A stretch of 40,688 nucleotides of DNA from Pseudomonadota bacterium (GCA_947454665.1 CANGMU010000001.1:1-40688), one strand, 5' to 3'. Positions 2,411 to 39,748 are shown, counted from the first letter of the stretch. The notes: generated from the sequence alone by a model not told the origin. Program-made: numbers and translations.

Positions 2411-2538
2411 GCAGCCGCGCGATATCACGCGGATCAAGGCGGACCTGCAGTCTGCGGGCGGGCGATTCACCCAGGGCCTCGGCAGCCTGCATTGTAAACT
2501 CGACCACCCCAGCACTTCCGCACCCGATGGAGCGCCCC

Positions 2539-4627
<2,089 letters not shown>

Positions 4628-4658
4628 GGCCGTGGACCTCCGTCCCGTTGTGGCTTCA

Positions 4659-4687
4659 ACTATAGGCTGACGGAGCGGGACTGTCAT
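4659..4687 (-). promoter_or_regulatory. candidate sigma70-type promoter of ligAB
   Basis: The minus strand reads ATGACA-17 nt-TATAGT. The -10 element ends 31 nt upstream of the ligA ATG. Confidence 0.45.
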
Positions 4688-4729
4688 GGCGCGCGACACC
4701 ACGACAACAACCCAACGGGGGATATCGAC

Positions 4730-7426: not shown

Positions 7427-7537
7427 GATTCCCCCTGCTCCAAGCCATTGCGGCCCGCCTATTGTGGCGTTTATGACCGCTGGTGGTGAAATTCGTTCGG
7501 ACTCCTTGATACCACAACGAACAGCCTCGCGCGTACG

Positions 7538-13237: not shown

Positions 13238-13428
13238 GGGGATCTCCAGATAGCGGGGAGCGCAAAGCCCGACAGGGCCCGAAATGCTAGCACCGGGGCA
13301 CACCGGGGAATGCCGTCAAAGTGGCTGCTCAGGTCAGGCAGGCGCAAGCCGGCCATGGCACTATCAGGTGCCTGCCATCCGCAGGTCAGCAAAGCGCGCC
13401 CAGATGCGCCGACAAGGGGTCTCCAGCC

Positions 13429-14526: not shown

Positions 14527-16286
14527 AATCGACCTGGCTTGGAGCCGTAGGCCTTTACCTGCTCAGCTCGATCTGTGCAGCGCAGCTGCCACCCGGCGTC
14601 ACGCCGGAGATGATCGCCTCCTCGCTGCCTGAAGAAGGCGCGGTCAAGGCCGAGCCCGGCCGCTACGCCGTGACGTCTGAAGCGGCATTTGCCAGCGAAG
14701 GGCTCAAGGTGTTCCGCCCGGCCAGTCTCGACCGCTTTCCGCGGCAGGACACGCTGCCCGTGGTGGTCTGGGGCAATGGCGGCTGCGCGATCGACAACGC
14801 CCGCTACACCGGCTTCCTGGAGACCATCGCGTCGCAGGGCTTCCTGGTGGTGACTACCACGGCAGCACCCGCAGCGGTGACGCCGGGCGCGACCGCAGCG
14901 CGTCGTCAGGCCACAGCCGGCGACCTGGCGTCGGCGATCGACTGGGCCCTGCACGAAAACGAGCGAGCCGGATCGGCGCTGCTGGGCAAGGTCGACACGA
15001 AACACATCGCCGTGATGGGCCAATCCTGCGGCGGCCGTCTGTCGCTGGAACTGGGGACCGACCCACGCGTGGGCACCATCGGTGTATTCAACATGGGACT
15101 GCAGCCCGGCCAGTTCAATCAGCTCGCGAAATTGCATGGCCCTGTGCTGCTGATCAACGGCCACGAGCGCGACTTCATGTTCGGCCAGTCGAAGGCCACC
15201 TTCGATGCACTCGAAACGTTGCCCGTGTTCTACGGTTCCCGGCACGGCGCGGGCCATACGGGCACGTCCTACCACGCGGGTGGTGGCGAGTTCGCCAACG
15301 TGGCAGCGAACTGGGTGCGCTGGCAGTTCAAGCAGGATCGCAAGGCCTCGCAGATGTTCGTGGGTGACCACTGCGGGCTGTGCACGAACAAAAACTGGGA
15401 CGTGGCCGCCAAACGGCTGGCTTTCGCCTCGGCGGCCACGGCAGTGGCCCTGCCCCTGCCCCCCTGCGATCGCGAGTGCCTGCGCGGCGCGCTGGGCCAG
15501 GTGCTCTATGCCTTCGTCGATCACGACGTCAGCAAACTGCCCGTCGCGGCAAACCTGCGCGTCACCGAAGACGGTGTCGAGAAGGCGCTCGACAAGGTGG
15601 GCCTCGTCCGCAGCGTGACGCGGCTGCGCGGTTACCGGCAGGATGTCATCGACGAACGGACGGGGCAGGTCCTGGCAGGCGTGCTGGTGGAAGAATCCGG
15701 CGCGCCGGTGATCCTCGTCGTGCGGGTGAAGGTCGAGGGCGACAGGCTGCGCGAGCTGGAACTGATCAGTACGCGCAGCCGTACTGACGGGATGATCTTC
15801 GCGATCGATCATTTCACCGTGGCCCGCAAGGCCATGAGCGTCGTGCCCCGCCCTGCGCAGCTCGCGACGCGCGCGGAGGCGCTGGAGATCGCCCTGCATT
15901 ACCCGCGCGGGCTGAACTCGGCGAAGACCTTCAATGCCGTGGACACGCCATTCGCGCCGGAGGCGCGACGCATCGAGAACGGCGCCCTGATGGCGGGCCC
16001 GGGCTGCACCTTCAACAAGGGCTGCGAGGACATCGGGAACCAGCCGCTCACGATCTTCGAACGGCTCGGCAAGGTGACGCTGCGCGATGCCGTGGTCGAC
16101 GAACGGACCGGTATCGTCGCGCTGCGGCTGTCCTGGAACCAGAGCGGCCCGGGCTCGGACAAGCTGACGGCCTGGGAGTTGTTCAAGGTCTGGGACCGCC
16201 AGATCCACGCGGTCGAAGCCTATATCCGCCTGTTCAAGCCGGAACAGGAGCTTGGCGGCTGGCCGCTGCGCGTCGCGCAGCCCTGA
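14523..16286 (+). CDS. secreted alpha/beta hydrolase (GQSCG nucleophile elbow) fused to a ~275-aa C-terminal extension
   Basis: Sec signal MKSTWLGAVGLYLLSSICAA|Q. Hydrolase features are VMGQSCGGRLSL (Ser ~15024..15026), INGHERD and GAGHTG. The hydrolase core ends near KRLAF (~aa 300), and the remainder (~15465..16283) has NTF2-like sequence character. Confidence 0.85.
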   Translation: MKSTWLGAVGLYLLSSICAAQLPPGVTPEMIASSLPEEGAVKAEPGRYAVTSEAAFASEGLKVFRPASLDRFPRQDTLPVVVWGNGGCAIDNARYTGFLETIASQGFLVVTTTAAPAAVTPGATAARRQATAGDLASAIDWALHENERAGSALLGKVDTKHIAVMGQSCGGRLSLELGTDPRVGTIGVFNMGLQPGQFNQLAKLHGPVLLINGHERDFMFGQSKATFDALETLPVFYGSRHGAGHTGTSYHAGGGEFANVAANWVRWQFKQDRKASQMFVGDHCGLCTNKNWDVAAKRLAFASAATAVALPLPPCDRECLRGALGQVLYAFVDHDVSKLPVAANLRVTEDGVEKALDKVGLVRSVTRLRGYRQDVIDERTGQVLAGVLVEESGAPVILVVRVKVEGDRLRELELISTRSRTDGMIFAIDHFTVARKAMSVVPRPAQLATRAEALEIALHYPRGLNSAKTFNAVDTPFAPEARRIENGALMAGPGCTFNKGCEDIGNQPLTIFERLGKVTLRDAVVDERTGIVALRLSWNQSGPGSDKLTAWELFKVWDRQIHAVEAYIRLFKPEQELGGWPLRVAQP

Positions 16287-16348
16287 CGCCAGCGCGACGG
16301 CAGCTAGCGGTTCGTGCCGTGCATCGACAAGGAAACAAAGGGGGCTCC

Positions 16349-17080
16349 ATGCAACGGATACATTTCGCCATCGTCGTCGCGGCCGGGCTGGTGTTTTCAG
16401 CGCCGCCTTCCGGCTCTGCCGAATCGCACCCGGACCTGACCGGCGTCTGGACCAGCGCGGACGGCGCGGGACGTCGCGACGCAACGGGAACCACGATTCC
16501 CCTCAAGCCCGACGCAAAGCGACGTCACGACACGTTCAACAAGCTCGTGGAGCCTTCCGGCGACACGCCGGGGGGCGTGTGCCTGGGGGCCGGCATGCCG
16601 GGTGCCATGCTCGGTGCCGGGGGCTATCCCATGGAGATCATCCAGCGGCCTGAACAAATCACGCTCATCTACGAATTGCACGGCGAAACGCGACGCGTGT
16701 ATTTCGGCGACCGCAATGCGCCCGAGGCCGACCGCGTGCCGGGCCGCAGCGGCTATTCCAGCGGTCACTGGGATGGCGATGTACTCGTCGTGGAGACGAA
16801 CAACCTGGTCGAGCAGTTGGACCAGCGCACCACCCCGCATTCGGAGGATGCCGTGATCGTCGAGCGATACCGCCTGGATGGCGTCGACGAACAAGGGCGC
16901 CGCATCCTTTCAGCCGAGCTGACGATGACCGATCCGACGTTCTACAGCGCACCGGTCACACTCACGCGAAAGTGGGCGCAGGTGCCCAACGGCCGTCTGC
17001 TGCCCTATGAATGCAACGAGGAATTCTGGCGGGAACGGCTCCAGTCACTCGCCCGGAAAGCTGGCATGAAACTCCCCTGA
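16349..17080 (+). CDS. exported protein, GHSIGxWEGxxLVV-module family (paralogue 2)
   Basis: ATG 16349 is preceded by AAGGGGG. Sec signal MQRIHFAIVVAAGLVFSAPPSGSA|E. Module motifs are VCLGAGMPGAM...MEIIQRP...RRVYFGD...SSGHWDGDVLVVET...VERYRLD...MTDPTFY...YECNEE. Confidence 0.85.
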   Translation: MQRIHFAIVVAAGLVFSAPPSGSAESHPDLTGVWTSADGAGRRDATGTTIPLKPDAKRRHDTFNKLVEPSGDTPGGVCLGAGMPGAMLGAGGYPMEIIQRPEQITLIYELHGETRRVYFGDRNAPEADRVPGRSGYSSGHWDGDVLVVETNNLVEQLDQRTTPHSEDAVIVERYRLDGVDEQGRRILSAELTMTDPTFYSAPVTLTRKWAQVPNGRLLPYECNEEFWRERLQSLARKAGMKLP

Positions 17081-17134
17081 AGAACCTGGCGAAAGCGGAC
17101 GCCACGCGATGTGGCTCAGCCCCGCCGCGGTGAT

Positions 17135-17989
17135 TCAGCCTGACTCGGCTTCCTCGCGGCGTCGCTGCCGCTCCTCGGCTTCGAGTCGCTCGTCTTCGAT
17201 GACCTCGAGAACCGCGGCCACGTCCGCCACATGCTCGTCGCGTTCGAAACGCCCCGTCAGGGGTGACTCCGGCTGCAGCACGCCCTCTTCGTAAAGCGCC
17301 CAGATCTCATGGGCGTACTCCGTTTCCAGCAGTTCCGGCGCCGCCCGTCCGCAGTATTCGCGCATGTTGTTCACGTCACGCTCGAGCATGCGGAAGGCGT
17401 TGTTGTTGCCAGCAGCGTTCACCGCCTGCGGCAGGTCGATGATGACCGGGCCGGTCGCATCGAGCAGCACGTTGAATTCGGACAGGTCGCCGTGGATGAG
17501 GCCTTCGCAGAGCATGAGGACGATCTGGCGCACGAGAAAGGCATGCCACTGGCGGGCCTGCTCGGGTTCGGGCATCACATCATTCAGGCGCGGGGCGGGA
17601 TTGCCCTCGGCATCGCGCACCACCTCCATCAACAGCACGCCATCGAATACGCCGTAGGGCTTTGGCACGCGCACGCCGGCCGCGGCAAGACGGTAGAGGG
17701 CCTCAACTTCCGCACTCTTCCACTCGGCTTCCTGAACGCTGCGGCCGTGCCGACCGCCCTTGCCCAAGGCCCGTGCATCGCGACTGCCGCGCACCTTGCG
17801 ACCTTCCTGGTATTCGGCGAGCTTGTGGAAGCCGCGATGGTTGGCGTCCTTGTAGACCTTGGCGCAGAGGATTTCATCGCCGCGGGCCACGAGAAAGACC
17901 GAAGCCTCCTTGCCACTCTTGAGCCGACGGATGACGGTATCGACGATGCCGTCTTCGATGAGCGGCTGCAGTTCGCGAGGGGACTTCAT
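17135..17989 (-). CDS. RIO1-like serine protein kinase (bacterial PA4780-type)
   Basis: Motifs SGKEASVF (P-loop-like), CAKVYK, LIHGDLSEFNVL (catalytic loop) and IIDLPQAV (metal-binding), followed by an acidic C-terminal tail. Confidence 0.85.
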   Translation of the reverse strand: MKSPRELQPLIEDGIVDTVIRRLKSGKEASVFLVARGDEILCAKVYKDANHRGFHKLAEYQEGRKVRGSRDARALGKGGRHGRSVQEAEWKSAEVEALYRLAAAGVRVPKPYGVFDGVLLMEVVRDAEGNPAPRLNDVMPEPEQARQWHAFLVRQIVLMLCEGLIHGDLSEFNVLLDATGPVIIDLPQAVNAAGNNNAFRMLERDVNNMREYCGRAAPELLETEYAHEIWALYEEGVLQPESPLTGRFERDEHVADVAAVLEVIEDERLEAEERQRRREEAESG

Positions 17990-20865: not shown

Positions 20866-22464
20866 ATGTCGTCACTCACCGCCGCGCAGGCAAGCTCGAT
20901 CGTCGCCCTGGCGACCACGCTGGGTCTCTTCTCGCTGCCCGATGCAATGGCCGCGCAACCCGCGACAGCGGTGTCGCCGGCGTCCTGCGCGGGCCTACGC
21001 GAACTGGCCACGCCGACCTATCGCGTCGACGCCAGTGACTGGGTGGCGGCCACGGAGACGGCACCGGCGCATTGCCTGTTCCGCGCCACGATCGATCCGC
21101 GCGCTTCCGGCATCGAGGATCTCAGCTATGGCACCGGCATCGAACTGCGGCTGCCCGCCGCATGGAGCGGTCGCCTGCTGTTCCAGGGTGGCGGCGGACT
21201 CAATGGCGTCATGAACCCCGCCTTCGGCAACGTCAACGGCTTTGCGTCCGCGCTCGCGCGGGGTTATGCGGTCGTGTCGACCGATGGCGGCCATCGTGGC
21301 CGCAGCGCCATCGACGTGCGCTTTGGCGTCGACCAGCAGGCTCGGCTGGATTTCGCCTATCAGGCTGTCGAACGCAGCACACGGGAAGCCAAAGGGCTGG
21401 TCACGCGGGTCTACGGCCGCAAGCCGGACCACACCTACTTCATGGGCTGTTCCACCGGTGGCCGAGAGGCCTTGCTGGCTGCACAGCGTTTGCCGCGCGA
21501 ATTCGACGGCGTGGTGGCCGGCAACGCGTCCTACAACCTCACGCGCATCGCCCTGAACCAGGCCTTCAGCCTGCAGGCTGTCACGCGCATCGCCCCGCGG
21601 GACGCGAACGGCAAGCCGGATCTCTCCCGCGCCTTTTCCGATGCCCAGCTCAAGGGTGTGGCCGACGCCGTGCTGAAGCGCTGCGATGCGCTCGACGGTC
21701 TCGCCGACGGGATCATCCACGACGCACGCGCCTGTCGCTTCGACCCGGTCGAGCAGGTGTGCGGCAAACGGAACGCGCCGGGTCCGGGAATTTGTCTCTC
21801 GCCCGCACAGGCCAACACCTTGCGCACGGTCTTCGGCGGCGCGAAGAACACTCGCGGCGAAATGCTGTACGGCGATTTCCCGTTCGACACCGGCATCGCG
21901 TCGTCCGCCTGGCGGGGCATGCACCTGGGCGCACCAGGCGGCGCCCCGGCCAATGCGACGCTCGGCAGGGACACGCTGCGACTGTTCGCGATGACCCCGG
22001 CCGCCCCCGACTTCGACATCAACCACTTCGATTTCGATCGGGACATCGAGCGCACGCGTGAGACGGCCGCCATCAATGACGCCGTGGCGACGATGCTCGA
22101 CAGCTTCGCCGGACGGGGGGCGAAGCTGATCGTCTATCAGGGGCTGTCCGACCAGGCCATTTCGCCCGGGTCGATCACCCAGTGGTATGAGCAGGTGACC
22201 CCTCGCAAATCCGAGGGTCCGCAGGATTGGGCGCGTCTGTTCCCGGTGCCCGGCATGCTCCACTGCAGCGGCGGCCAGGCGACGGATCAGTTCGACATGC
22301 TGTCCGCGATTGAGGCCTGGGTCGAAAAGGGCGTGGCGCCGGATCGCGTCGTGGCGACGGGCAAGTCCTTCCCCGGCCGATCACGCCCCCTGTGCCCCTA
22401 TCCGAAGGTGGCGCGCTATGAAGGCGGCAATCCGGAGGACGAACGCAGCTTCGCCTGTCGCTGA
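20866..22464 (+). CDS. tannase/feruloyl-esterase-family alpha/beta hydrolase
   Basis: Family signature FMGCSTGGREAL, plus LLFQGGGGLNG, STDGGHRG and multiple conserved Cys. It has an N-terminal signal-like region. It sits 10 nt after the previous gene, with an AGGAAG SD. Confidence 0.9.
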   Translation: MSSLTAAQASSIVALATTLGLFSLPDAMAAQPATAVSPASCAGLRELATPTYRVDASDWVAATETAPAHCLFRATIDPRASGIEDLSYGTGIELRLPAAWSGRLLFQGGGGLNGVMNPAFGNVNGFASALARGYAVVSTDGGHRGRSAIDVRFGVDQQARLDFAYQAVERSTREAKGLVTRVYGRKPDHTYFMGCSTGGREALLAAQRLPREFDGVVAGNASYNLTRIALNQAFSLQAVTRIAPRDANGKPDLSRAFSDAQLKGVADAVLKRCDALDGLADGIIHDARACRFDPVEQVCGKRNAPGPGICLSPAQANTLRTVFGGAKNTRGEMLYGDFPFDTGIASSAWRGMHLGAPGGAPANATLGRDTLRLFAMTPAAPDFDINHFDFDRDIERTRETAAINDAVATMLDSFAGRGAKLIVYQGLSDQAISPGSITQWYEQVTPRKSEGPQDWARLFPVPGMLHCSGGQATDQFDMLSAIEAWVEKGVAPDRVVATGKSFPGRSRPLCPYPKVARYEGGNPEDERSFACR

Positions 22465-28327: not shown

Positions 28328-28428
28328 GGGTGGCGGGCTGCGGTGAAGGACATGGCCCGGCGCAGCCTACACGACCGGTGCGATATGATCAGGATCCCTC
28401 CATCCCCCGCAAAGAGCCTGATCCCACC

Positions 28429-29226
28429 ATGATCGGAAACTATCGTGCGCTGAGTGCGCTGACGACCCTCTTGCTGCTGTCGGCCGAAGCGAGCGCCACC
28501 ATCGTGCGTTTCGAAACGGCCCAGGGTCGCTTCGATGTGAACCTGTACGACAAGAAGACACCGGCCACGGTGGCCAACTTCCTCGCCTACGTGAACAGCG
28601 GCGCCTACAACACCGTGGTGTTCCATCGCTCGGTGAGCGGCTTCATCGTCCAGGGCGGTGGTTACACCTTCCCCGGCGCCCTGCCGCTCGGCACCGTCAC
28701 CGCGCGCGCGGCGGTCGTGAACGAGCCCCTGTTGTCCAACGTGCGGGGCACGATCGCCATGGCCAAGGTGGCCGGCAACCCGAACAGCGCCACCAGCCAG
28801 TGGTTCATCAACGTGGCCAACAACAGCACCACCCTCGATACGCAGAACGGCGGCTTCACCGTGTTCGGCGAGGTCGTCAGCGGCGGCATGACCGTCGTCG
28901 ACGCGATCAATGCCCTGCCGACTTTCAATGCGGCAACCGGCTTTGAAGAACTGCCGCTGCGCAACTACACCGCAGCGAACCTGACCGCCGGCGTGGCGAT
29001 CACGGATCAGAACCTGGTGTACGCCACGACGGTCAGCGTGCTGGACAGCAACGTCGACTCGGCGGCCAGCCTCACGCCGGTCACGAATACGCTGATCAAG
29101 GGGTCTTCAAGTACGTCGACGTCGGGATCGACGTCCAGCTCGGGCGGCGGCGGCGGCGCGACCGGTGTCCTGTCCGTGCTGGGGCTGGGCGCGCTTGCGC
29201 TGGGCAGGCGCCTGCGTCGCCGCTGA
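28429..29226 (+). CDS. secreted cyclophilin-type peptidyl-prolyl isomerase with GlyGly-CTERM-like sorting tail
   Basis: ORF 28330..29226 was trimmed to ATG 28429, with a Sec signal ...LLLLSAEASA|T. Cyclophilin motifs are NFL.YV..G.Y....FHR...GF..QGGG, GT.AMA and NSA.SQWFIN. The tail reads SSSTSTSGSTSSSGGGGGATGVLSVLGLGALALGRRLRRR. Confidence 0.88.
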   Translation: MIGNYRALSALTTLLLLSAEASATIVRFETAQGRFDVNLYDKKTPATVANFLAYVNSGAYNTVVFHRSVSGFIVQGGGYTFPGALPLGTVTARAAVVNEPLLSNVRGTIAMAKVAGNPNSATSQWFINVANNSTTLDTQNGGFTVFGEVVSGGMTVVDAINALPTFNAATGFEELPLRNYTAANLTAGVAITDQNLVYATTVSVLDSNVDSAASLTPVTNTLIKGSSSTSTSGSTSSSGGGGGATGVLSVLGLGALALGRRLRRR

Positions 29227-30572: not shown

Positions 30573-32042
30573 CTACCGGGGTTCGAAGGGCAACTCCACG
30601 CGGGGCACCCACCAGCCGTGCACCTGCATGTGCAAACGGAAGGGCAGCTTGATGCGGGCCACGGCACCGGCAGCCAGGTCCATCGCGTCCACGACGACCA
30701 GTTCCGAGCGCAGCGCGCGGAAGTCGTTCACGACACCGATCAGGTAACCGTCTCCCTCGGGGGCATCCGGTGAGCGCGGCACGAACTGCATTTCCGAGAC
30801 GCCGTGGCTGTCGCCGGGCGAGAAGGTGTCGATCTGGCCCGTGACGTGATCGAAGCGGCACCAGACGTTGGAGACGCGCACCGCGAGGGTGTCGGCAAAC
30901 TCGCGATTCACCGGCTGGTTGGGATCGCTCATCATCATGAAGCTGTAGCGATTCTTCCGACCGACGTAGCGATCGTCGATGCGCGTGAAGCTGGTGACCT
31001 TCATGCCCCCGAAGAGGAGCTCTTCCTGCCAGGTATCGCTGGCCGAGTCGAGATCGAAGGTCCAGCGCCGCATCGTCGGGATGTAGCGCGAGGGATCATT
31101 CGGCTGGCCATCCACGCGCGGGAAATAGGAGTGGAAGTTCTCTGCGGCCACCGGCGCCTCGAGGATCACCTTGTTCCCCTCGCTCCAGGCATTGGTCGTG
31201 TGGACCAACATCGCCTGGTCGGGCGTACCGTGGAACCAGCGCACGTCCTTGGCCGTTCCATTGCGCGGCACGATGGCCACATGCGCAGGCACGGCCGGGT
31301 CATAGGCCCAGTGCAGCTTGCCCTGCTTAAGACGTTCGGGCGAAGTCACCATGCCGGTGGTGGGCAGGATGACATGCCGATCCGTGATGGCCATGTCGTG
31401 CATGGCATTGACCACCGGCGCCTTGAACCAGATCTCGTTCGTGACCGAGCCACCCTTGTCGATCACATACACGGCGAGGTCGTCGCTGCAATCGCCCTTG
31501 GCCTCGTAGGAAAAGGCAACCAGCTCACCGGTACGCGGATCGAGCTTCGGGTGGGCCGTGAACGTCGTGGCCGTCATCCTGCCACCGAAATTCCATTCTC
31601 CGATCGTGTCCAGCGTGTCCGGGTCCAGGCGCACCGGCAGGCCTTCCTCCTTCATGCTGAACAACATGCCGGCATGCACGATCGGCGTCGTGTTGGCGGT
31701 GCTGTGGCTCAGCTCCCGCACGCTGGGATCCGACGTCGACCGGTTGCGGTATCGGCCGAACAGGGCGCGGTGCGCGGCGCGTTCGGCGACGTAGCGGTCC
31801 GTCTTCACATAGCGGGAGCGGTAATCCACGTGGCCGTCGTAGAAACGGAACTGGTCGACCGCGCCATCGGCGTTGTACGGCGTGTCGTCGGCATACATCG
31901 CGGCGAAGCGCCGATCCGCACAGCTGCGAAAGAACGTGCCCTGCAGCGCGGCAGGCAGCGTGCCTTCGACCTCGCAATCCAGCACTTCGGCTTCGAAACG
32001 CATCGGCGCGAAGAAATCGCTGCCGCGGGTTGAGCTGCTCAT
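30573..32042 (-). CDS. carotenoid-oxygenase-family dioxygenase (lignostilbene-alpha,beta-dioxygenase-like)
   Basis: RPE65/CCD layout with four spaced His candidates (TAHPKLDP, AMHDMAITDRH, LVHTTNAW, QVHGWWV). The N-terminus DGAVDQFRFYDGHVDYRSRYVKTDRY is colinear with LSDs as recalled. Start is ATG 32040-32042 (GGGGGA SD); the in-frame ATG at 32084 is the alternative. Confidence 0.87.
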   Translation of the reverse strand: MSSSTRGSDFFAPMRFEAEVLDCEVEGTLPAALQGTFFRSCADRRFAAMYADDTPYNADGAVDQFRFYDGHVDYRSRYVKTDRYVAERAAHRALFGRYRNRSTSDPSVRELSHSTANTTPIVHAGMLFSMKEEGLPVRLDPDTLDTIGEWNFGGRMTATTFTAHPKLDPRTGELVAFSYEAKGDCSDDLAVYVIDKGGSVTNEIWFKAPVVNAMHDMAITDRHVILPTTGMVTSPERLKQGKLHWAYDPAVPAHVAIVPRNGTAKDVRWFHGTPDQAMLVHTTNAWSEGNKVILEAPVAAENFHSYFPRVDGQPNDPSRYIPTMRRWTFDLDSASDTWQEELLFGGMKVTSFTRIDDRYVGRKNRYSFMMMSDPNQPVNREFADTLAVRVSNVWCRFDHVTGQIDTFSPGDSHGVSEMQFVPRSPDAPEGDGYLIGVVNDFRALRSELVVVDAMDLAAGAVARIKLPFRLHMQVHGWWVPRVELPFEPR

Positions 32043-32048
32043 CGTGTG

Positions 32049-32081
32049 TCCCCCAGGGTCCGGGGACCGGACCATGGGGGA
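32049..32081 (-). promoter_or_regulatory. strong hairpin whose 3' arm contains the SD of the dioxygenase gene
   Basis: The minus-strand RNA reads UCCCCCA-U-GGUCCGG-ucc-CCGGACC-C-UGGGGGA: 14 base pairs with one U/C mismatch. UGGGGGA is the only SD-like element and sits 6 nt before AUG 32042. Confidence 0.45.
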
Positions 32082-32106
32082 CATTCTACGGAATCGCCGC
32101 AGCCAG

Positions 32107-33246
32107 CTACTGCTGGAACTCCGGCGTCATGTCCTTGCAGGGCTGCTTCTGGAAGGGCACGTCCGAGAGATACATGACGTCGTAGCTCTCGTACGGGGCC
32201 GACAGGTAGACCGGATCCGTGACCGAATAGTCGCGGCGCAGGGACAGCTTCTGCGAATCGAGGGTGAAGCGCTCGACGATGTGCATCTGCTCGCTGCTGC
32301 GCGTGGGCGGCGAGAGCACGCCCGCGGCAAACCCGACGGTGTCCACGACCAGCGTGTCGCCTTCCCAGTTGCCGATCGAATGACCGGCAGCGCTCGGCTT
32401 GAGGCGCTCCGGATGCTTGGTCATGCCGACATGGATGCGGCGTTCAAAGTTGTACAGGCCGTAGGTGATGTCGATGACCTTCTCGCCGCCGACGGTCTTC
32501 TGCTGGAACCGGTTGATCGGCCAGTCAGCCGTCCAGTCACGAATGATGCTCGTGGGTTTGCAGGCGAACCACGGGTTGTCCTTCGGCGACCGGCCGTTGA
32601 AGGCATCCGCCGCCTTCTTGCCGGCCTCCGTATAGACAGCCTTCGGACGCGGCGGCTGCGTGGCCTGCACCTGCTGGAGGCTGATCTTGCCGGCGGCAAA
32701 GTCCGCCGACATGCTCTTCGGGATCATCGAACCGTTGCCGCCGCTCGGCGGCACCGTGAGGACGAGCTGCTCGACGGCCCAGTCGCCGCTGATGTTCGGC
32801 TGGCCATCGGCCAGCTTCAGCGGGCGCTTGGACGTGTCGACCGTCGACTTGGTCTGGAACTGGTCATTGCGGCTCATCGTCGGGCCGTCACCGAGCTTGA
32901 AGGTCTCGATGTAGCAGGCGCCGGGATCATCGCGATGCGGACGTCCGTCGATTTCCACATGCAAACCCGGCTTGAACATCTCGATGGACCACCCGGAACG
33001 GCGCAGCAGCGCAGCCGCGCGCATCTCGCAGCGCATGTGCTGTTTCTTGCCGCTCGCATCGATCGCGTCGAGCTCCATGTAGGAGTGCGGGTTGATCAGG
33101 TTCATCTTGGTCAAAGTGCCCGACCACTGCCGCATCTGGTCCATCTGGAACAGGCCAAAGCCATGATGGGCGAGCGCCGGCGCAGCGATGGCGACAAGGA
33201 CGGCCGCGGCTACAGCAGGCCGCACGAGTTTGCGTGACGTGAACAT
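32107..33246 (-). CDS. exported two-domain protein: DUF6152-like His-His N-terminal domain fused to GHSIGxWEGxxLVV module (paralogue 4)
   Basis: ATG 33244-33246 is preceded by GGGGGG. Sec signal MFTSRKLVRPAVAAAVLVAIAAPALA|HHGF. The N-domain has NPHSY, CE and KPG. The module has FACKP...RRIHVG...GHSIGNWEGDTLVVDT...IVERFTLD...VTDPVYL...QPCKD. Confidence 0.85.
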   Translation of the reverse strand: MFTSRKLVRPAVAAAVLVAIAAPALAHHGFGLFQMDQMRQWSGTLTKMNLINPHSYMELDAIDASGKKQHMRCEMRAAALLRRSGWSIEMFKPGLHVEIDGRPHRDDPGACYIETFKLGDGPTMSRNDQFQTKSTVDTSKRPLKLADGQPNISGDWAVEQLVLTVPPSGGNGSMIPKSMSADFAAGKISLQQVQATQPPRPKAVYTEAGKKAADAFNGRSPKDNPWFACKPTSIIRDWTADWPINRFQQKTVGGEKVIDITYGLYNFERRIHVGMTKHPERLKPSAAGHSIGNWEGDTLVVDTVGFAAGVLSPPTRSSEQMHIVERFTLDSQKLSLRRDYSVTDPVYLSAPYESYDVMYLSDVPFQKQPCKDMTPEFQQ

Positions 33247-33283
33247 GGAACCCCCCGGTTCAGTAATCAATATTCAGGTGCTT

Positions 33284-34312
33284 CTAGAAGGGAAGCGTAG
33301 CCAGCTGCGTGCTGCGGTAAGCGAACTCGAGGAACTGGCTCGGATCGCCAAGCTGTTTCAGGACGGGATGACCGATCAGCGGCCGATCCGCCACGATGGG
33401 CACGACGCCCTTGAACTCCTTGCCGGCATTGAACTCCGCGACATCCCTGGGGCCCAGGCCCTTGTTGAACAGGACGAAGAACTGTCGGAACAGCTGCCAG
33501 TAAAGGTCCTTCATCTTCACGACATCGGCGCCGGTCATCAGCGGGCCATTGGCCGGCACGACGATCGTGTCCGGCTTCACGAGCTCGGCCAGGATGTCGT
33601 ACGAGCGCACGAAGCCGTGCATGAAGCCGCCGTTGAGATAGTCGATCACCGGCCAGCGGTCCGAGGCCACCGGGCCGCCCGCAACGAGCACGTTGCGCTT
33701 CGGGAAATAGACGTACAGGTCGCCATCGGTGTGCGCGCCCGGCAGGTGGCGGTATTGCACCGACTCGCCATTGAACTCGAGGGTGCCCTGGTCATAGGTG
33801 GTCTTAGTCGGCCGCGCGTTCTCCGGCAGCGGCGCGATGGTGCCGTCGAAGAGCGGCGAACGCATCTTGCGGCCGACGGTCAGCCGCGTGACCTCATGCG
33901 CGAAGATCATCGCGCCGTCCTTGCCGGCGGCCTCGTTGAGACCGGTCTGGTCCGGGTGCCAATGCGTGTTGACCAGCGTGTGGATGCGACGCGTGCCGAG
34001 CTTGCCATGCACGGCCTTCAAGAGCAGCGCGGCATTCACCGCGTTGCCACCGTCCACCAGCAGCGCGCCGTCAGGGCCCGGCAAGGCCACGACATTGCAG
34101 CCGCTGCCGGCGAACAGCGTCAGACCGCCGATGTCCTGCTGGGTGATGTCCTTGGCGGACACCTTCCTGCCGACGAAGGGCTTCGTGATGAGCGAATAGT
34201 CGATGCCGGCCGGCGGCGGCGCGGCCAGCAAGGGCGCCGCGGCCCCGAGCAGCGGCGCAGCGAGGGTGAACTGCGCGCTGTCACGCAGGAAAGAGCGACG
34301 AGAGACGGTCAT
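33284..34312 (-). CDS. Tat-exported metallo-beta-lactamase-fold hydrolase (variant motif HWHPDQ)
   Basis: ORF 33284..34507 was trimmed to ATG 34310-34312 (AAAGGGA SD). The twin-arginine signal is MTVSRRSFLRDSAQFTLAAP. MBL motifs are LVDGG, NTHWHPDQTG, GAHTDGD. Confidence 0.85.
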   Translation of the reverse strand: MTVSRRSFLRDSAQFTLAAPLLGAAAPLLAAPPPAGIDYSLITKPFVGRKVSAKDITQQDIGGLTLFAGSGCNVVALPGPDGALLVDGGNAVNAALLLKAVHGKLGTRRIHTLVNTHWHPDQTGLNEAAGKDGAMIFAHEVTRLTVGRKMRSPLFDGTIAPLPENARPTKTTYDQGTLEFNGESVQYRHLPGAHTDGDLYVYFPKRNVLVAGGPVASDRWPVIDYLNGGFMHGFVRSYDILAELVKPDTIVVPANGPLMTGADVVKMKDLYWQLFRQFFVLFNKGLGPRDVAEFNAGKEFKGVVPIVADRPLIGHPVLKQLGDPSQFLEFAYRSTQLATLPF

Positions 34313-34322
34313 GGAAATCCCT

Positions 34323-35891
34323 TTAGCGCGTGACGACCGATTCCACCGGCCAGAGCACCGAGTCGTACACGGCGGTCGCGATGGGTGGGCCCTGCGGCGG
34401 CCAGTCCGGCGTCGCGGTGAGCTCGACCTTCGCACCGAGCTTGCGCAGGTTGGCGGCCAGCGCGTTGTTGGGCGGCTGCGCCATGGCAAGGAAGGGCACA
34501 TACCCACGGCCCATCGCGTAATCGAGCGCGGTAAGGCCGTCTTCGTCCTTCGCGTTGATGTCCAGCTTCAAATCGAGCAGGGCCTGGATCAGCTGCGGAT
34601 TGCCCCCGTTTCGCACGACGTAGTGCAGGGCCGAACCGCCGCGCGTGCGGGCCAGGAAATGCCGCTTCGACATCAGGTTGACGTCGGCGCCTGCCTGGGC
34701 GAGCAGCTTGACCAATTCGGCCTGCGGATTGGTACGCGGGCCCCGGGCAGCGGCCTCTCCTTCTTCCGCCTGCGCCGCAGGTTCTTCCGGGAAGGCGAAC
34801 GGCGACCGACCGCCCCGACGTGAATTTACCGCCATGATGATCGGGCCGCGACCATCGGCCGTGGCCAGATGCACGTTGGCGCCGTGCGCCAGCAGCAGCT
34901 TCACCACCTCGAGGTTGCCGGTTCCGCAGGCCACCAGGAAAGGCGTCATGCCGCGATCCGCGGCACCACCCAGGCCCGTGGCCCCGAAGTGCTGCTGCTG
35001 GTTCGGATTGGCGCCACGCTCGACCAGCAGGTTCACCAGCGCACGGCCAGTGGTCTTGTTCGGCTGGTCATTGTCGAGCGGGTTGCGGTTGTTCGCCGTC
35101 TGCATGTTGCCGATGGCCACATGCAACGGTGCGCGACCGTACCAGTCCCAGCCGTTAACGTCGGCACCGGCCTCAACAAGACGCTTGGCGATATCCCAGT
35201 TGGCGTTGAGCATGGCCACCGAAAGAGGGCCCACCTCGCTCGGATCGCCCAGGTTCACGTCCGCCTTGTGCTTGAGCAGGATCTCGACGCATTCGCGGCA
35301 GTTTTCGCGCGCGGCGTAGAGCAGCGGCGTGAGGCCACCGCGGTCCAGAGATTTGGCGCGGCTTTCTGCCTGCACCACGCGCTGATAGTCGCGGATCGCA
35401 CTGCGGGCATTCACGTCGGCGCCCTTCGAGGCCAGCAGTTCGACCATCGCCGGATGACGGCGCGCTACCGCCCACATCAACGGCGTCTGTCCGCCGAAGC
35501 TTTCTTTCGGATCGACCTTCGCGCCGGCCTTGAGCAGCGATTTCGCCGCCTCGACGTTGCCGGCTCGCGCCACCAGGTGCAGTGCGGTCTCGCCGTCGGC
35601 ATTGGGGGACGTCGGGTCGGCGCCGGCCTTCAGCAACAGCGCGATCAGCTCGGTGTTGCCGCTGTCGGCAGCCAGCTGCATCGCGTTGACGCCGTAGACA
35701 TTCGTCGCGCGCACTTTCGCGCCCGCCTTGATCAGCCGCTTCGCCGCCGCGACGTCGCCCTCAAAGGCGGCCATCTGCAGTGGCGTGGTGCCGTCCGCCC
35801 TGACCGGCTCATCGACCTTCGCGGCGGACACGCTGGCCGTGGCCAGCAGTGCGACAGCGACGGAAGCCAGCGTGATTACCCCTCGTGCCAT
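34323..35891 (-). CDS. periplasmic ankyrin-repeat protein (about ten ANK repeats)
   Basis: Sec signal MARGVITLASVAVALLATASVSA|A. ANK consensus blocks recur: G.TPL..AA..G......LL..GA.VN (TPLQMAAFEGDVAAAKRLIKAGAKV, ETALHLVARAGNVEAAKSLLKAGAKV, LTPLLYAARENCRECVEILLKHKADVN and others). Confidence 0.88.
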   Translation of the reverse strand: MARGVITLASVAVALLATASVSAAKVDEPVRADGTTPLQMAAFEGDVAAAKRLIKAGAKVRATNVYGVNAMQLAADSGNTELIALLLKAGADPTSPNADGETALHLVARAGNVEAAKSLLKAGAKVDPKESFGGQTPLMWAVARRHPAMVELLASKGADVNARSAIRDYQRVVQAESRAKSLDRGGLTPLLYAARENCRECVEILLKHKADVNLGDPSEVGPLSVAMLNANWDIAKRLVEAGADVNGWDWYGRAPLHVAIGNMQTANNRNPLDNDQPNKTTGRALVNLLVERGANPNQQQHFGATGLGGAADRGMTPFLVACGTGNLEVVKLLLAHGANVHLATADGRGPIIMAVNSRRGGRSPFAFPEEPAAQAEEGEAAARGPRTNPQAELVKLLAQAGADVNLMSKRHFLARTRGGSALHYVVRNGGNPQLIQALLDLKLDINAKDEDGLTALDYAMGRGYVPFLAMAQPPNNALAANLRKLGAKVELTATPDWPPQGPPIATAVYDSVLWPVESVVTR

Positions 35892-35895
35892 GGCC

Positions 35896-37173
35896 TTATG
35901 CCTCGCCGAAGGTGCCGGTTGCGTCGCCGAAGTGATCCAGCTTCACGCCCGCGCGCTGGGACATCGTCAGCAGCACGTTGGCCAGCGGCGTGTCCTTCGG
36001 GGCCGAGATGTGCTGGTTGCCCTTGAATCCACCGCCCTTGCCGAGGACGAGGCAGGGCAGCTGGCTGCAGTTGTGCAGGTCCGAATTACCGAGGTTCGAC
36101 CCGTATAGCATCATGGTCGTGTCGAGCAGGTTCTTGTCGCCTTCCTTGATGCTCTGGAGCTTCTGAGCGAGTCGCGCAAAGCGCTCGATCTGCCAGGTCT
36201 GCACGCGACGCAGCTTTTCCTGCTTGTCCGGATCCTCGCCGTGGTGCGACAGCGGGTGGTAGGCCTCGTCCACGTTGATGGATGGGAAGGTGCGCATCGA
36301 CGCTTCCTTGATCATGCGCAGCGAGGCGACGCGCGTCTGGCCGGTCTGGAAGGCCAGCGCCACCATCTCGAACTGCACGTCCACCAGCTCGGTGAAATCA
36401 TCCGGCGTGCCGCGCGGTGCATCCGGCAGTTCGCCCAGGCTGTCGGCCTTCGCCATCAGTTTCGAGACGCGGCCCTCGACCTCGCGGACCGACTCCAGGT
36501 AATCGCTCACGAGCGCGCGATCCGCCGCGCCGAGCTTGCGGTTGAGGCTGTTGCTGGCTTCGAGCACGTAATCGAGCAGGCTGTCGGTGGCCTTGAGTCG
36601 AGCGACACGGTCGGCGTTGGAATCACCCGGGCCGAACATCGTGTTGAACACCTTGCGCGGGTTGCCTTCCAGCGGGAGGCTGCGGTTGAGCCCCGTGTAG
36701 GACGTGGCACCACCCGGCTCCGCGCAGAGTTCCAGCGAAGTCAGCGGCGTGTCCTTGCCGATCGTCTTCGCGATCAGCTGGTCGACCGAAATGCCGGCCT
36801 CGGGGCCCCAGGTGTTCAGCTGTGGATCCTGCACCGTCAACCAGGTCTGCTCGGTGATGCCGTGCGGCGGATTCTGGCGCTCGCCCGACTTGTTGCGGAT
36901 GTTGGTGAACAGCGTGACGTAGTCGCGCACGGCTTCCATCGGCTTGAGGATGGGCGAGAACTCGAAGCCCTTGCCCGTGCCCTTGGGCACCCAGAACCGC
37001 TCCACCGCCCCATGCGGCACATACACGAAGCCGACGCGCGGCTTCACGGCGGCGGCGGTGTCAGCCAACGCGGTGCTGGCCGGGACCATCGCGTCCAGCA
37101 GCGGCAGCGCGATGGCGGCGCCGACGCCCTTGAGCATCGTGCGGCGGGGAATGTGCTTCTTGGTGATGAACAT
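35896..37173 (-). CDS. DUF1552-family protein with twin-arginine signal
   Basis: GGAGG SD. The Tat signal is KKHIPRRTMLKGVGAAIALPLLDAM. The characteristic YHPLSHHG motif is present. It sits immediately downstream of a DUF1592-type gene, the usual pairing. Confidence 0.87.
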   Translation of the reverse strand: MFITKKHIPRRTMLKGVGAAIALPLLDAMVPASTALADTAAAVKPRVGFVYVPHGAVERFWVPKGTGKGFEFSPILKPMEAVRDYVTLFTNIRNKSGERQNPPHGITEQTWLTVQDPQLNTWGPEAGISVDQLIAKTIGKDTPLTSLELCAEPGGATSYTGLNRSLPLEGNPRKVFNTMFGPGDSNADRVARLKATDSLLDYVLEASNSLNRKLGAADRALVSDYLESVREVEGRVSKLMAKADSLGELPDAPRGTPDDFTELVDVQFEMVALAFQTGQTRVASLRMIKEASMRTFPSINVDEAYHPLSHHGEDPDKQEKLRRVQTWQIERFARLAQKLQSIKEGDKNLLDTTMMLYGSNLGNSDLHNCSQLPCLVLGKGGGFKGNQHISAPKDTPLANVLLTMSQRAGVKLDHFGDATGTFGEA

Positions 37174-37196
37174 GGTCTTCGGTGCCTCCAGAGAAG

Positions 37197-39683
37197 CTAC
37201 TGAACGGTCGACGCAATCTTGGGAAGGGTCTGCTTCGGCAGCGCTGCGGCCGGCGCGCGACGGCGGAAGGCATCGCTGTTGACGATGCCCAGCACCAGCG
37301 ATTCGAAGCTGAGTCCGTCGGACTTCGCCTCGCGCACGACAGCACGCACGGTCGGCATGTCGTTGTGGTCGATATGGCGACCGACCGCATAGGTCATCAG
37401 CTTCTCCGTGATGATCCCGGCGAACTGGTCGCCGCGCACAGCCAGCGCCTTGTGCAGGTCAGCCGGGCCCACGAGGGTCTGGCCGTCAGGCATCGTGGCC
37501 GTGGAATCGATCACCTGCCGCGACTGCGGATCGATCTTGCGATAAGCGCCGACCGTATCGAAATTCTCGAGCGCGAAGCCGAGCGGATCCATCACGGCAT
37601 GGCAGCTCGCGCAGGCGGGGTTGCGACGGTGGATCTCGGTCTGTTCACGCACGGTCGCGGGCTTGCCCTTCACGGCCTCGCCCAGGTCCGGCACGTTCGG
37701 CGGCGGCACCGCAGGCGGCGTCCCGAGGATGCGTTCCAGGATCCAGGCACCGCGCAGCACCGGAGCCGTGCGGTTCGGATTGGCCGTCACCATCAGCACC
37801 GCGCCCTTGCCCAGCAGGCCATGGCGATTCGGATCTGACAAGGTGACCTTGTGGAAGCCGTTGCCGCGGATGTCCGTATAGCCATAGATCAGCGCGACCT
37901 GCTCGTTGATGAAGCTGTGGTCGGCCGTCAGCAGGTCCGTGACCGGCCGCTCCGAACGCAGGATGCTGTCCATGAACAGCTCCAGTTCCTTCTTGAGCGC
38001 CGGCCGCGGGTCATAAACGCCGCTGGCATGCTGGAACAGCGCCGCCGCGGGGACGATGCTGTCCATCTTCGCGATGTTGAGCCACTGGAAGGCGAAATCA
38101 CGCGTCAGCGAGATGGCGCGCGGATCCGCGATCATCCGGTGGACCTGGGCCTTCAGCACGTCCGGCTTGGAAAGCTGGCCCGTCTCGGCGAGCGAAAGCA
38201 GGGTGTCGTCCGGCAGGCTGCTCCACAGGAAGAAGGACAGGCGCGAAGCCAGCTCCAGGTCCGTCAGCGGACGCGAGCCCTGGTCGACTGCGGCTTCCGC
38301 GCGGTACAGGAAGTGCGGGCTGACCAGGATGGCGGCGATCGACTCGCGCACGCCGCCCTCGAAGCCGTCCACCTTCTGGCCCTTTTCGTAAAAGCGCATC
38401 AGCGGGGCCATGTCCTCGTCCGTGACCGGCCTGCGGAAGGCCTGGCGTGCCAGTCGGCCGATGATCTTCTCGGCGCAGCCGCGCTCTTCCGCGGCGGCGG
38501 CAGGACGGCAGCTGAAGACCTTCTTGCGGCTCGCCGAATCGCTCATGCCGGAGATCTTCAACGGCCCCTTCACCTGGAAGGCGTGCACGGCCGGCACGCG
38601 GTGCTGACCGCCCTCCAGCGCATTCGCCGGACGGCGATCGTCACCGGGCTGGTACTGCAGCGTGCGCGAATCGCTCTCGGCGTAACTGCGACGCAGGAAA
38701 GTCACGGCGAGCGTGTGCTGGCCAGCGGTGGCCCTGAAGCGGATGTCCTTCAGCCGGCCATTGATCTGGGCCACGGCGTCGTCGAGCCGCTGGTCGATGG
38801 CCGTGTGATCCTCTTCGCCACCGATGGTGGTGCGCCAGATCTCCTTGCCGTCGAGCAGCGCGATCACGGTGTTCTCGAACTCCATGTTCGGCACCGTGCG
38901 GGCCAGGGCCATGTCGCCGATGGTGAGCAGATACTCGCCGTCGGCCGGGAAATTATGCAGCGCGCTCATGCCACCGCGCGTGCCGAAGGGCATGCCGTCC
39001 CGGTAGCGACGCTGGTTGCCGGATCCGATGGCCGGCGCGGCGGCCAGCGACAGGATCATGTTCGGAACGAGGCCGTAGGTGGTTTCCAACGGCACCGACT
39101 TCGGGTCGCCCACCGCCAGCAGCGCCAGCGAACGCGAGGCCGAGACCGCCTGGTCCATGAACGTCGCATTCATCTGCAGCGACTCGGCGTTGGTGTCGAA
39201 GTCGTCCTTGAGCGGATCCTGGGGCAGCCAGGTGGCGGCGTCGATCTCGAGGCCCAGCAGGTCCTTCACCGCGTTCGCGTATTCACGGCGGTTGAGGCGA
39301 CGCAGCGGCACATGCCCGACGTGGGGGGCAGCCTCCTGCGCCTTGTCGAGCGTGGTTTCAAGCCAGCTCACCATGCTCTGCACGGCGGCGCGATCCGGCT
39401 GCTGCTTTTCGGTCGGCGGCGGCATCAGGCCGCTGCGCAGCTTCTTGATCGCGGATTCCCAGACCTTGGATTCCTGCGGGATGCCTTCTGCGGACAGCGT
39501 GTCAAAGGCAATGCTGCCGGCCCAGTCCGTGGTGTTGTGGCAGCCGAAGCAGTACTTCTCGACGGTCTGCCAATTCGAGGCGTGCGGAGCCACCGCGGGG
39601 GCAGCCGAGGGCTGCGCCGCAGCGGTCACACCCGAGATCGCGCCAAGGCCCGTCAAAAGAGCCAGCAATCGCATCGCACTCAT
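37197..39683 (-). CDS. DUF1592/DUF1588/DUF1585-type multidomain protein with two CxxCH haem-c motifs
   Basis: ORF 37197..39743 was trimmed to ATG 39681-39683 (MSAMRLLALLTGLGAISGVTAAA, Sec signal). The N-terminal motif is EKYCFGCHN (39537..39551) and the C-terminal motif is CASCHAVMDPLGFALENFD (37599..37613). The long alpha-helical middle is typical of this family. Confidence 0.87.
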   Translation of the reverse strand: MSAMRLLALLTGLGAISGVTAAAQPSAAPAVAPHASNWQTVEKYCFGCHNTTDWAGSIAFDTLSAEGIPQESKVWESAIKKLRSGLMPPPTEKQQPDRAAVQSMVSWLETTLDKAQEAAPHVGHVPLRRLNRREYANAVKDLLGLEIDAATWLPQDPLKDDFDTNAESLQMNATFMDQAVSASRSLALLAVGDPKSVPLETTYGLVPNMILSLAAAPAIGSGNQRRYRDGMPFGTRGGMSALHNFPADGEYLLTIGDMALARTVPNMEFENTVIALLDGKEIWRTTIGGEEDHTAIDQRLDDAVAQINGRLKDIRFRATAGQHTLAVTFLRRSYAESDSRTLQYQPGDDRRPANALEGGQHRVPAVHAFQVKGPLKISGMSDSASRKKVFSCRPAAAAEERGCAEKIIGRLARQAFRRPVTDEDMAPLMRFYEKGQKVDGFEGGVRESIAAILVSPHFLYRAEAAVDQGSRPLTDLELASRLSFFLWSSLPDDTLLSLAETGQLSKPDVLKAQVHRMIADPRAISLTRDFAFQWLNIAKMDSIVPAAALFQHASGVYDPRPALKKELELFMDSILRSERPVTDLLTADHSFINEQVALIYGYTDIRGNGFHKVTLSDPNRHGLLGKGAVLMVTANPNRTAPVLRGAWILERILGTPPAVPPPNVPDLGEAVKGKPATVREQTEIHRRNPACASCHAVMDPLGFALENFDTVGAYRKIDPQSRQVIDSTATMPDGQTLVGPADLHKALAVRGDQFAGIITEKLMTYAVGRHIDHNDMPTVRAVVREAKSDGLSFESLVLGIVNSDAFRRRAPAAALPKQTLPKIASTVQ

Positions 39684-39742
39684 CCCGATCCCCCGTTGGC
39701 CGCAGACAAGGTCTGCGAGCCGTCCACCCTCTTTAACCCCCA

Positions 39743-39748
39743 AGTATA
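39743..39748 (-). promoter_or_regulatory. candidate -10 box (TATACT) for the DUF1592 operon
   Basis: The minus strand reads ctCTTATACTtggg, 59 nt upstream of ATG 39683. No convincing -35 element. Confidence 0.3.

Follow-up and report, generated by a model that had tools for sequence, protein, structure and literature searches.

A conserved gene set joins an ankyrin-repeat protein and a metallo-β-lactamase-fold protein to the DUF1592–DUF1552 pair of predicted periplasmic proteins

Genes encoding PSCyt3 proteins usually adjoin a family of unknown genes, and nothing is known of the function (PMC5615132, 2017). Single elements of the locus reported here, which lies on a 40,688-nucleotide stretch from a Pseudomonadota bacterium (GCA_947454665.1 CANGMU010000001.1:1-40688; the whole stretch is referred to as the window), also occur in other described systems. 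Cellvibrio japonicus Cbp2D combines DUF1587 with a cytochrome domain, X183, that reduces lytic polysaccharide monooxygenases (LPMOs) (PMC8981238). AnkB, an ankyrin protein with a signal peptide, is encoded in an operon with the catalase KatB, which is fully active only with it (Howell et al. 2000, cited in PMC12754779). The ped clusters of Pseudomonas contain pyrroloquinoline quinone (PQQ) alcohol dehydrogenases, cytochrome c550 and an uncharacterised SoxH-like metallo-β-lactamase-fold (MBL) protein. The locus comprises five minus-strand genes, P1–P5, which encode a dihaem DUF1592-type protein (P1), a DUF1552 protein (P2), an ankyrin-repeat protein (P3), an MBL protein (P4) and a DUF6152 fusion (P5). 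An earlier note on the window had described the DUF1592 and DUF1552 families as lacking an assigned function; in agreement with this, our literature searches on DUF1592, DUF1552, PSCyt3, HXXSHH and DUF6152 returned genome surveys only, with no function assigned.

The window has about 65% G+C, and third-codon-position G+C singled out five minus-strand open reading frames (ORFs) as real genes, each starting with ATG and preceded by a purine-rich stretch. The five coding sequences and their spacing of 23, 4, 10 and 37 nucleotides (nt), as given in the earlier note, were reproduced, and the domains it had assigned to the five products all gave Pfam matches above gathering scores. The export signals it had seen on all five are visible in the sequence, with the twin arginines of P2 and P4 and the hydrophobic N-terminus of P3 conserved, and the two haem motifs it had located in P1 were found at the same positions and are conserved in orthologues. 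The genes and their principal motifs are as follows:

37197-39683, minus strand: P1, dihaem DUF1592-type protein, 828 amino acids (aa) from the ATG; 23 nt gap to P2
39537..39551, minus strand: haem-c attachment motif 1 of P1, CFGCH (C45-H49), in 51/53 orthologues
37599..37613, minus strand: haem-c attachment motif 2 of P1, CASCH (C691-H695), within PSCyt3/DUF1588, in 52/53 orthologues
35896-37173, minus strand: P2, DUF1552 protein, 425 aa; 4 nt gap to P3
36241..36258, minus strand: HPLSHH motif of P2, residues 306-311 (H306, S309, H310, H311), part of a His-rich conserved set
34323-35891, minus strand: P3, ankyrin-repeat protein, 522 aa; 10 nt gap to P4
33284-34312, minus strand: P4, MBL protein, 342 aa from the ATG; 37 nt gap to P5
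33947..33964, minus strand: HWHPDQ metal motif of P4 (H117, H119, D121, Q122), forming with H194 the sole retained, three-His site
32107-33246, minus strand: P5, DUF6152 fusion, 379 aa; 22 nt gap to a dioxygenase gene

The first four of these genes very probably form a functional unit. To define the conserved gene set, an MBL-anchored scan of one genome per GTDB species yielded 75 loci, in which neighbouring genes were identified by tblastn and family hidden Markov models; 38 of the loci are well flanked, with at least 7 kb on both sides. A second scan, of metagenomes, was anchored on a diverse DUF1552 alignment and gave loci at 42-81% identity, 17 of them well flanked. P1, P2, P3 and P4 are all present in 35 of the 38 genome loci, down to about 35% identity, and a P5-like gene adjoins the module in only five, all of them close relatives. 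Thus, of the five-gene block that the earlier note had viewed as welded together, the joining of the DUF1592–DUF1552 pair to the ankyrin and MBL genes stands, being conserved across phyla and through rearrangements, whereas the DUF6152 fusion varies. The metagenome loci gave a similar picture: the ankyrin gene occurs in 17/17, the MBL gene in 15/17 and all four genes together in 14/17. P1 lies directly upstream of DUF1552 in every locus compared, and P3 adjoins P1–P2 in 36/38 genome loci and 17/17 metagenome loci.

The MBL-anchored loci come from Steroidobacteraceae and other Gammaproteobacteria, Nevskiaceae, Rariloculaceae and Vicinamibacterales (Acidobacteriota). The genes were observed in at least four orders (P1P2P3P4; P4 divergent from P1P2P3; P4P1P2P3; P1P2P4P3), and the pairwise-identity matrices of the four families correlate with r = 0.83-0.96. 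Several genome assemblies, metagenome-assembled genomes included, hold two or three modules, some of them in tandem. Paralogous tandem modules are found in L009, L011, L028, L167, L113 and L117 (L numbers denote individual loci), in which a second DUF1592–DUF1552–ankyrin set, 28-42% identical, lies directly upstream of the orthologous set; the second set of L009 and L011 has its own divergent MBL gene on the opposite strand.

In more distant relatives the set is smaller. DUF1592–DUF1552 pairs at 24-33% identity on a Planctomyces plasmid, on pMSHV of Sphingobium herbicidovorans and in Chondrinema are found without ankyrin and MBL genes, and a megaplasmid of the cultured Novosphingobium sp. KACC 22771, NZ_CP117882.1, carries the P1–P2–ankyrin triplet at about 943.3-948.5 kb with no MBL gene. 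Since P5 and the dioxygenase and major facilitator superfamily (MFS) permease genes that follow it are confined to close relatives, the gene contents compared here arrange themselves as a nested set: the pair is universal, the ankyrin gene is present in a large clade, the MBL gene is present in most of that clade, and P5, dioxygenase and permease are local.

P1 contains PSCyt1, PSD3/DUF1587, PSD5/DUF1595, PSD4/DUF1592, PSCyt3/DUF1588 and PSD2/DUF1585 domains, all exceeding the gathering score (PSD3 65.7, PSD5 73.9, PSD4 130.4, PSCyt3 119.9 and PSD2 73.1 bits; PSCyt1 29.5 against 22). Its domain order, its conserved CxxCH motifs, whose coordinates were computed from residues 45 and 691, and the DUF1552 gene directly downstream identify it as a DUF1592-type PSCyt/PSD multidomain cytochrome. 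M87, within the sequence GLMPPP, is invariant across the 53-sequence orthologue set and is the probable distal ligand of haem 1. The cysteine pair C392/C403 is likewise conserved in orthologues, and the N-terminal signal predicts that P1 is Sec-exported. An AlphaFold2 model built from 39 homologues was unusable (pLDDT 50.9, pTM 0.41), and Foldseek returned nothing for it at E <= 0.001. NCBIfam has no family for P1, P2 or P5, and sequence searches with these three proteins against the PDB found no relatives.

P2 is a DUF1552 protein (PF07586, HXXSHH; 257.6 bits against a Pfam cut-off of 30). Its twin arginines, R10 and R11, are invariant among relatives, and it is accordingly predicted to be exported by the twin-arginine translocation (Tat) pathway. 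Among relatives of 35-93% identity, H54, H104, D131, H306, S309, H310, H367 and H388 are invariant. The AlphaFold2 model of P2 has a pLDDT of 67.6 and a pTM of 0.73. The top 50 Foldseek matches to this model all belong to the alkaline-phosphatase superfamily, with a probability of 0.9-1.0 for the top 13, and include LtaP/LtaS, sulfatases, phosphopentomutase and iPGM (best E-value 4e-4, TM about 0.4). We consider an alkaline-phosphatase-superfamily fold probable from the model. A profile search of the PDB with alignment A2, which covers the 35-78% identity range, found no relatives.

P3 matches Ank_2 (208 bits) and Ank (188 bits) in Pfam and has about 11 repeats in its 522 aa, which makes it an ankyrin-repeat protein. 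It carries a signal-like N-terminus that predicts Sec export, and the N-terminus is hydrophobic in 51 of 56 orthologues. P3 is much larger than AnkB. A conserved periplasmic ankyrin partner is rare in bacteria, and P3 would extend the precedent of AnkB and its catalase.

P4 matches Lactamase_B with 39.3 bits (cut-off 22.7). The twin arginines are 94-97% conserved among its relatives, and P4, like P2, is predicted to be Tat-exported. Clustered at 50% identity, the subfamily falls into about 115 groups (E <= 1e-30). H117, H119 and H194 are present in 62/62 family sequences, and position 121 is either D or E. Compared with the two-metal-site pattern of metallo-β-lactamases (H116/H118/H196; D120 with C221 or H121; H263), canonical position 121 is glutamine in 60/62 sequences (Q122 in P4), the equivalent of Cys221 is absent, and the column of the last canonical histidine (N255 in P4; H263 equivalent) is variable. 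Because only the three-His site is kept and the second-site ligands are lost, the metal site of P4 is likely mononuclear, as judged from these alignments. The metal motif had been called altered in the earlier note; an HxHxD sequence followed by a residue other than histidine is normal for B1-type enzymes, and P4 is unusual in that the ligands of the second site have been lost. By sequence, the PDB matches of P4 are B1-type MBL structures at 5e-5 to 1e-3 (6xfr, SPM-1, IMP-1), and its scores against the NCBIfam β-lactamase models lie below all cut-offs (B1 48.1 against 200, B2 25.4 against 240, B3 20.5 against 240). The best NCBIfam matches are TIGR04559 and TIGR04558, quinoprotein relay zinc metallohydrolases, also below cut-off (49.9 against 280 and 41.7 against 300).

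A census of the 135 nearest neighbours of the modules identified a sole recurrent additional family, the PQQ β-propeller dehydrogenases, which account for 17 of the 135 and are found within about 7.5 kb in 18/38 loci. Many of these have a fused cytochrome c, and some of their genes overlap the ankyrin gene on the same strand. On pMSHV (L162, 44.9-49.1 kb) a DUF1592 gene for a shorter protein of 536 aa lies with its DUF1552 partner ahead of separate cytochrome c and cytochrome b genes, an arrangement that resembles a split version of the haem wiring fused in P1. In L168 a 1211-aa TonB-dependent receptor gene, under a FecR/extracytoplasmic function (ECF) sigma pair, ends 21 nt before P1.

From the genes, domains, motifs, conservation and co-localisation observed, we infer complex formation, electron flow and chemistry as follows. 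P2 would be the catalytic subunit, with an alkaline-phosphatase-superfamily fold in which the usual Asp and nucleophile ligands are replaced by the invariant histidines, and this histidine cluster would hold one or more metal ions. P2 would work bound to P1, whose two c-type haems would link the metal centre of P2 to the periplasmic cytochrome pool and the respiratory chain. By analogy with the role of AnkB for the catalase KatB, P3 may be an adaptor or assembly factor for haem and metal proteins, and P4, as a mononuclear hydrolase, would act on an intermediate or product. In the roughly half of loci that have one, the PQQ dehydrogenase would supply a further oxidation step or electrons. The module may act on an imported organic substrate, and the multiple paralogous copies per genome suggest substrate-specific variants. 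To the lineage of the window, the DUF6152 fusion, the stilbene-type dioxygenase and the MFS permease would have been appended, outside the conserved unit; these appended genes may indicate a local substrate pool of plant phenolics. That P1–P4 are a vertically co-diverging periplasmic module made up of a haem-wired metalloenzyme, an ankyrin adaptor and an auxiliary hydrolase has, in our estimate, a probability of about 0.5. Taken separately, its redox wiring is a tentative proposal. The fullest version, a new periplasmic redox enzyme system in which an alkaline-phosphatase-fold DUF1552 protein was turned into a His-ligated metal centre with a dedicated dihaem partner, its own ankyrin assembly factor and an auxiliary MBL, is doubtful.

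Several points weigh against the haem-wired module. The loci sampled are relatives reached by pattern scans, the best 75-80 per scan, and species phylogeny partly accounts for the identity-matrix correlations. The P1 model, at a pLDDT of 50.9, gives a P1–P2 interface no structural support, and the P2 model is only moderate in quality (pLDDT 67.6, TM about 0.4 to its matches). Enzymes of the alkaline-phosphatase superfamily are classically hydrolases or transferases, not redox enzymes. Finally, a PQQ dehydrogenase is absent from the operon in the window, where the nearest one is about 25 kb away.

This last point also bears on the possibility that P1–P4 are an electron-relay or maintenance system for periplasmic PQQ quinoprotein dehydrogenases, with P1 accepting electrons, P4 acting in a SoxH-like manner, and P2 and P3 servicing the enzyme or its cofactor. 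The PQQ dehydrogenases adjacent in 18/38 loci, some of them co-oriented and overlapping module genes (L067, L069, L075), are consistent with such a role, as are TIGR04559 and TIGR04558 as the top NCBIfam matches of P4 and the presence of PQQ alcohol dehydrogenases, cytochrome c550 and a SoxH-like MBL in the Pseudomonas ped clusters. We nevertheless consider it unlikely: about half of the loci, including the operon in the window, have no adjacent PQQ enzyme, many of the adjacent enzymes have their own fused cytochrome c, DUF1592–DUF1552 pairs are widespread without PQQ genes, and P4, scoring 49.9 bits where the cut-off is 280, falls outside the quinoprotein relay family.

The alkaline-phosphatase/sulfatase and MBL folds are best known for ester hydrolysis, and the Tat signals on P2 and P4 are like those on PhoD- and PhoX-type phosphatases. 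It could therefore be proposed that P2 and P4 cleave phosphate, sulfate or other organic esters, leaving the haems of P1 a structural, sensory or activating role; the TonB-dependent receptor with its FecR/ECF sigma pair upstream in L168 and the multiple paralogous copies per genome would fit scavenging of this kind. The active sites fit it less well. The canonical nucleophile and Asp ligands of the superfamily are not evident in P2, in which histidine dominates the invariant residues, and P4 has lost its second metal site. Redox chemistry is indicated instead by the strict conservation of both haem sites and by the PQQ and cytochrome genes that recur nearby, and a scavenging system is in our view distinctly unlikely.

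The proposal that all five exported proteins, including the DUF6152 fusion, make up one dedicated periplasmic redox, hydrolytic and scaffold machine depends on P5. P5 matches DUF6152 (PF19649) with 62.5 bits against 27 over residues 17-106 only, and neither Pfam nor NCBIfam has a family that matches its C-terminal 270 aa; it is thus a DUF6152 domain fused to a C-terminal domain containing GHSIGNWEGDTLVVDT. It is predicted to be Sec-exported with a mature N-terminus of His-His. The tight gaps of 23, 4, 10 and 37 nt and the export signals on all five proteins favour a common machine. P5 also follows P4 in the closest relatives (L005, L006, L009, L011, L024 and L165-L167), and short DUF6152 and C-domain genes lie about 10 kb or less from modules in the distant loci L030, L061, L067 and L069. 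The P5 family has expanded and has four members in the window alone, which makes chance proximity to modules likely. The MBL gene is followed by P5 only where its identity reaches at least about 77%, or that of DUF1552 at least about 90%; L165-L167 (90-92% DUF1552 identity) have P5, and L168 (83%), like L008, L010 and L014, keeps P1–P4 without it. Orthologues of P5 at 79% identity occur in unrelated neighbourhoods, and in assembly DATMFO01 on a contig other than that of the module. With a P5-like gene next to the module in five of 38 loci, a five-part machine is very improbable, and P5 is, by its distribution, a lineage-specific appendage outside the conserved unit.

Elsewhere the two halves of P5 are adjacent separate genes, of about 135 aa for DUF6152 and about 275 aa for the other. 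That P5 might be a one-off fusion was considered and rejected, given thousands of full-length homologues and a second full-length fusion paralogue in the window at 8108-9160 (minus strand; 350 aa, 27% identity to P5, E = 2e-37). This paralogue is flanked by genes for a TonB-dependent receptor and for a PQQ quinohaemoprotein dehydrogenase that carries cytochrome c at its C-terminus (9260-11758 and 5321-7771, both minus strand); together these genes may be a separate uptake and oxidation unit. Stand-alone homologues of the C-terminal domain, whose motif is GxSxGxWxGDxLVVxT, were found at 1670-2410 and 16319-17080 (both plus strand), the latter after a 587-aa PETase-like ORF at 14523-16286. In other loci DUF8021 follows P5-type genes (L002-L004, L167). 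In L165, a 92%-identical relative, P5 is followed by genes for a multicopper oxidase (fn3 and Cu-oxidase) and a YHYH-domain protein (14258-17259), which are missing from the otherwise collinear L166. The signal-peptide cleavage region of P5 (33150-33170, minus strand) was compared with DUF6152 genes in L009, L030 and L061. In the DUF6152 proteins examined the signal peptide ends in A-x-A followed by HH(S/G)F, which predicts a histidine at the mature N-terminus; speculatively, this histidine and the conserved NPHS motif might recall a copper site of the histidine-brace type.

That P1–P4 have no functional link beyond the known pair is hardly credible, since, even though the distant pairs in Planctomyces, Sphingobium and Chondrinema lack ankyrin and MBL genes, the four genes stay together in 35/38 and 14/17 loci through rearrangements and across phyla and co-diverge, and only the PQQ family otherwise recurs among nearest neighbours.

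The remaining features of the locus lie on either side of P1–P5:

39684..40042, minus strand: intergenic region of 359 nt upstream of P1, presumed promoter region
30573..32084, minus strand: RPE65-family carotenoid/lignostilbene-type dioxygenase, no signal peptide, cytoplasmic; 22 nt downstream of P5
29296..30531, minus strand: MFS permease resembling aromatic-acid/H+ symporters; 41 nt gap from the dioxygenase gene

A promoter scan, Rfam and an inverted-repeat search found no sigma-70 consensus, Rfam family or inverted repeat upstream of P1, and a promoter/terminator scan, Rfam and inverted-repeat searches of the operon with its upstream region gave nothing over background. The earlier note had described an operon of exported proteins only. 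The co-directional run goes on into the dioxygenase after 22 nt and the MFS permease after 41 nt, so the operon probably extends past P5 into both; because the dioxygenase is cytoplasmic, a single transcript would encode more than exported proteins, and that description would then not hold. The dioxygenase has an RPE65 match of 399.7 bits in Pfam and 502 bits against the NCBIfam model LigStilDioxAlpha, below the cut-off of 800 for a lignostilbene-alpha,beta-dioxygenase equivalog. By these scores it is assigned to the carotenoid-cleavage-dioxygenase family but not to a particular substrate.

Genes suggestive of aromatic catabolism also lie at 2527-4735, 11912-13303 and 20866-22464 of the window. 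Their products are a class III extradiol dioxygenase of the LigAB type (466 bits against 317), a glutathione-dependent oxidoreductase resembling YghU, a protein similar to benzaldehyde dehydrogenases and a tannase/feruloyl esterase, and the contig resembles a plant-phenolic degradation region from a freshwater or soil bacterium related to Steroidobacteraceae. Because the window contains genes for a lignostilbene-type dioxygenase, an MFS permease, LigAB, a tannase and an aldehyde dehydrogenase, we considered whether the core module is part of a lignin or stilbene pathway. This was rejected because such neighbours are limited to the closest relatives, in which the dioxygenase and permease genes are near the module at shifting positions; a link to aromatic or lignin substrates rests on these lineage-specific genes and was not supported. 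At 28330-29226 (plus strand) the window also encodes a secreted prolyl isomerase of the cyclophilin type. It contains a linker rich in Ser and Gly, and the hydrophobic helix at its C-terminus ends in RRLRRR. A GlyGly-CTERM-type sorting tail was suspected in this protein, and no NCBIfam sorting-domain model matched at E <= 0.001.

Soil, freshwater and marine bacteria encode thousands of DUF1592-type cytochromes and DUF1552 proteins; among 8,000 candidates scored, more than 6,000-7,000 relatives of each were found. Throughout a broad clade the pair is tied to an ankyrin protein predicted to be secreted and an MBL with a likely mononuclear site, often with a PQQ dehydrogenase, which gives it concrete partners and a redox context. 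The minimal gene set is now four genes, not five, and Novosphingobium sp. KACC 22771, with its P1–P2–ankyrin triplet, offers a cultured host for genetics. The fullest version of the proposed redox system, if true, would open a first way into the function of the large 'planctomycete-specific' PSCyt/DUF1552 families.

The alkaline-phosphatase superfamily (sulfatases, LtaS/LtaP, phosphopentomutase, iPGM) provides the sole structural matches to the P2 model. P2 has no sequence-level relationship to it, even by profile, and its invariant residues are mostly histidines, not the canonical set of Asp and Ser/Thr/formylglycine. P4 has the fold and HxHxD motif of subclass B1 metallo-β-lactamases, as well as an equivalent of His196; it differs in lacking equivalents of Cys221 and His263, in its Tat signal and in falling under all NCBIfam β-lactamase cut-offs. 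The SoxH-like hydrolases, the best named match of P4, are likewise exported MBL proteins linked to PQQ dehydrogenases and c-type cytochromes. P4 is set apart from them by its score (49.9 against 280 bits), its three-His site only and the lack of partners: there is no rhodanese and no SoxYZ-like carrier, a gene for the latter being found neither in the operon nor in related loci.

Cbp2D, an extracellular redox protein, resembles P1 in combining PSD3/DUF1587 with a c-type cytochrome domain, from which in Cbp2D electrons pass to an LPMO, a metalloenzyme outside the cytoplasm (PMC8981238). Unlike P1, Cbp2D contains CBM2, FN3 and X domains, and it has no described DUF1552, ankyrin or MBL partner. 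In katB-ankB and katA-ankA, as in the present locus, a gene for an ankyrin protein with a signal peptide lies in an operon with a haem-protein gene (PMC12754779). No catalase gene is present in the window or related loci, and P3 is by this measure not of the AnkB type.

The closest known arrangement is the PSCyt3/DUF1592 and DUF1552 pair of Planctomycetes and Verrucomicrobia, which has the same domain architecture as P1–P2 and an immediately adjacent DUF1552 gene. Full-text literature searches did not find an ankyrin and MBL extension of this pair described. Here the pair is extended by a co-diverging, predicted secreted ankyrin protein and a predicted Tat-exported MBL, both of which the Planctomyces, Sphingobium and Chondrinema pairs lack. 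What is new is this extension of a known, uncharacterised pair, and it narrows a long-standing unknown.

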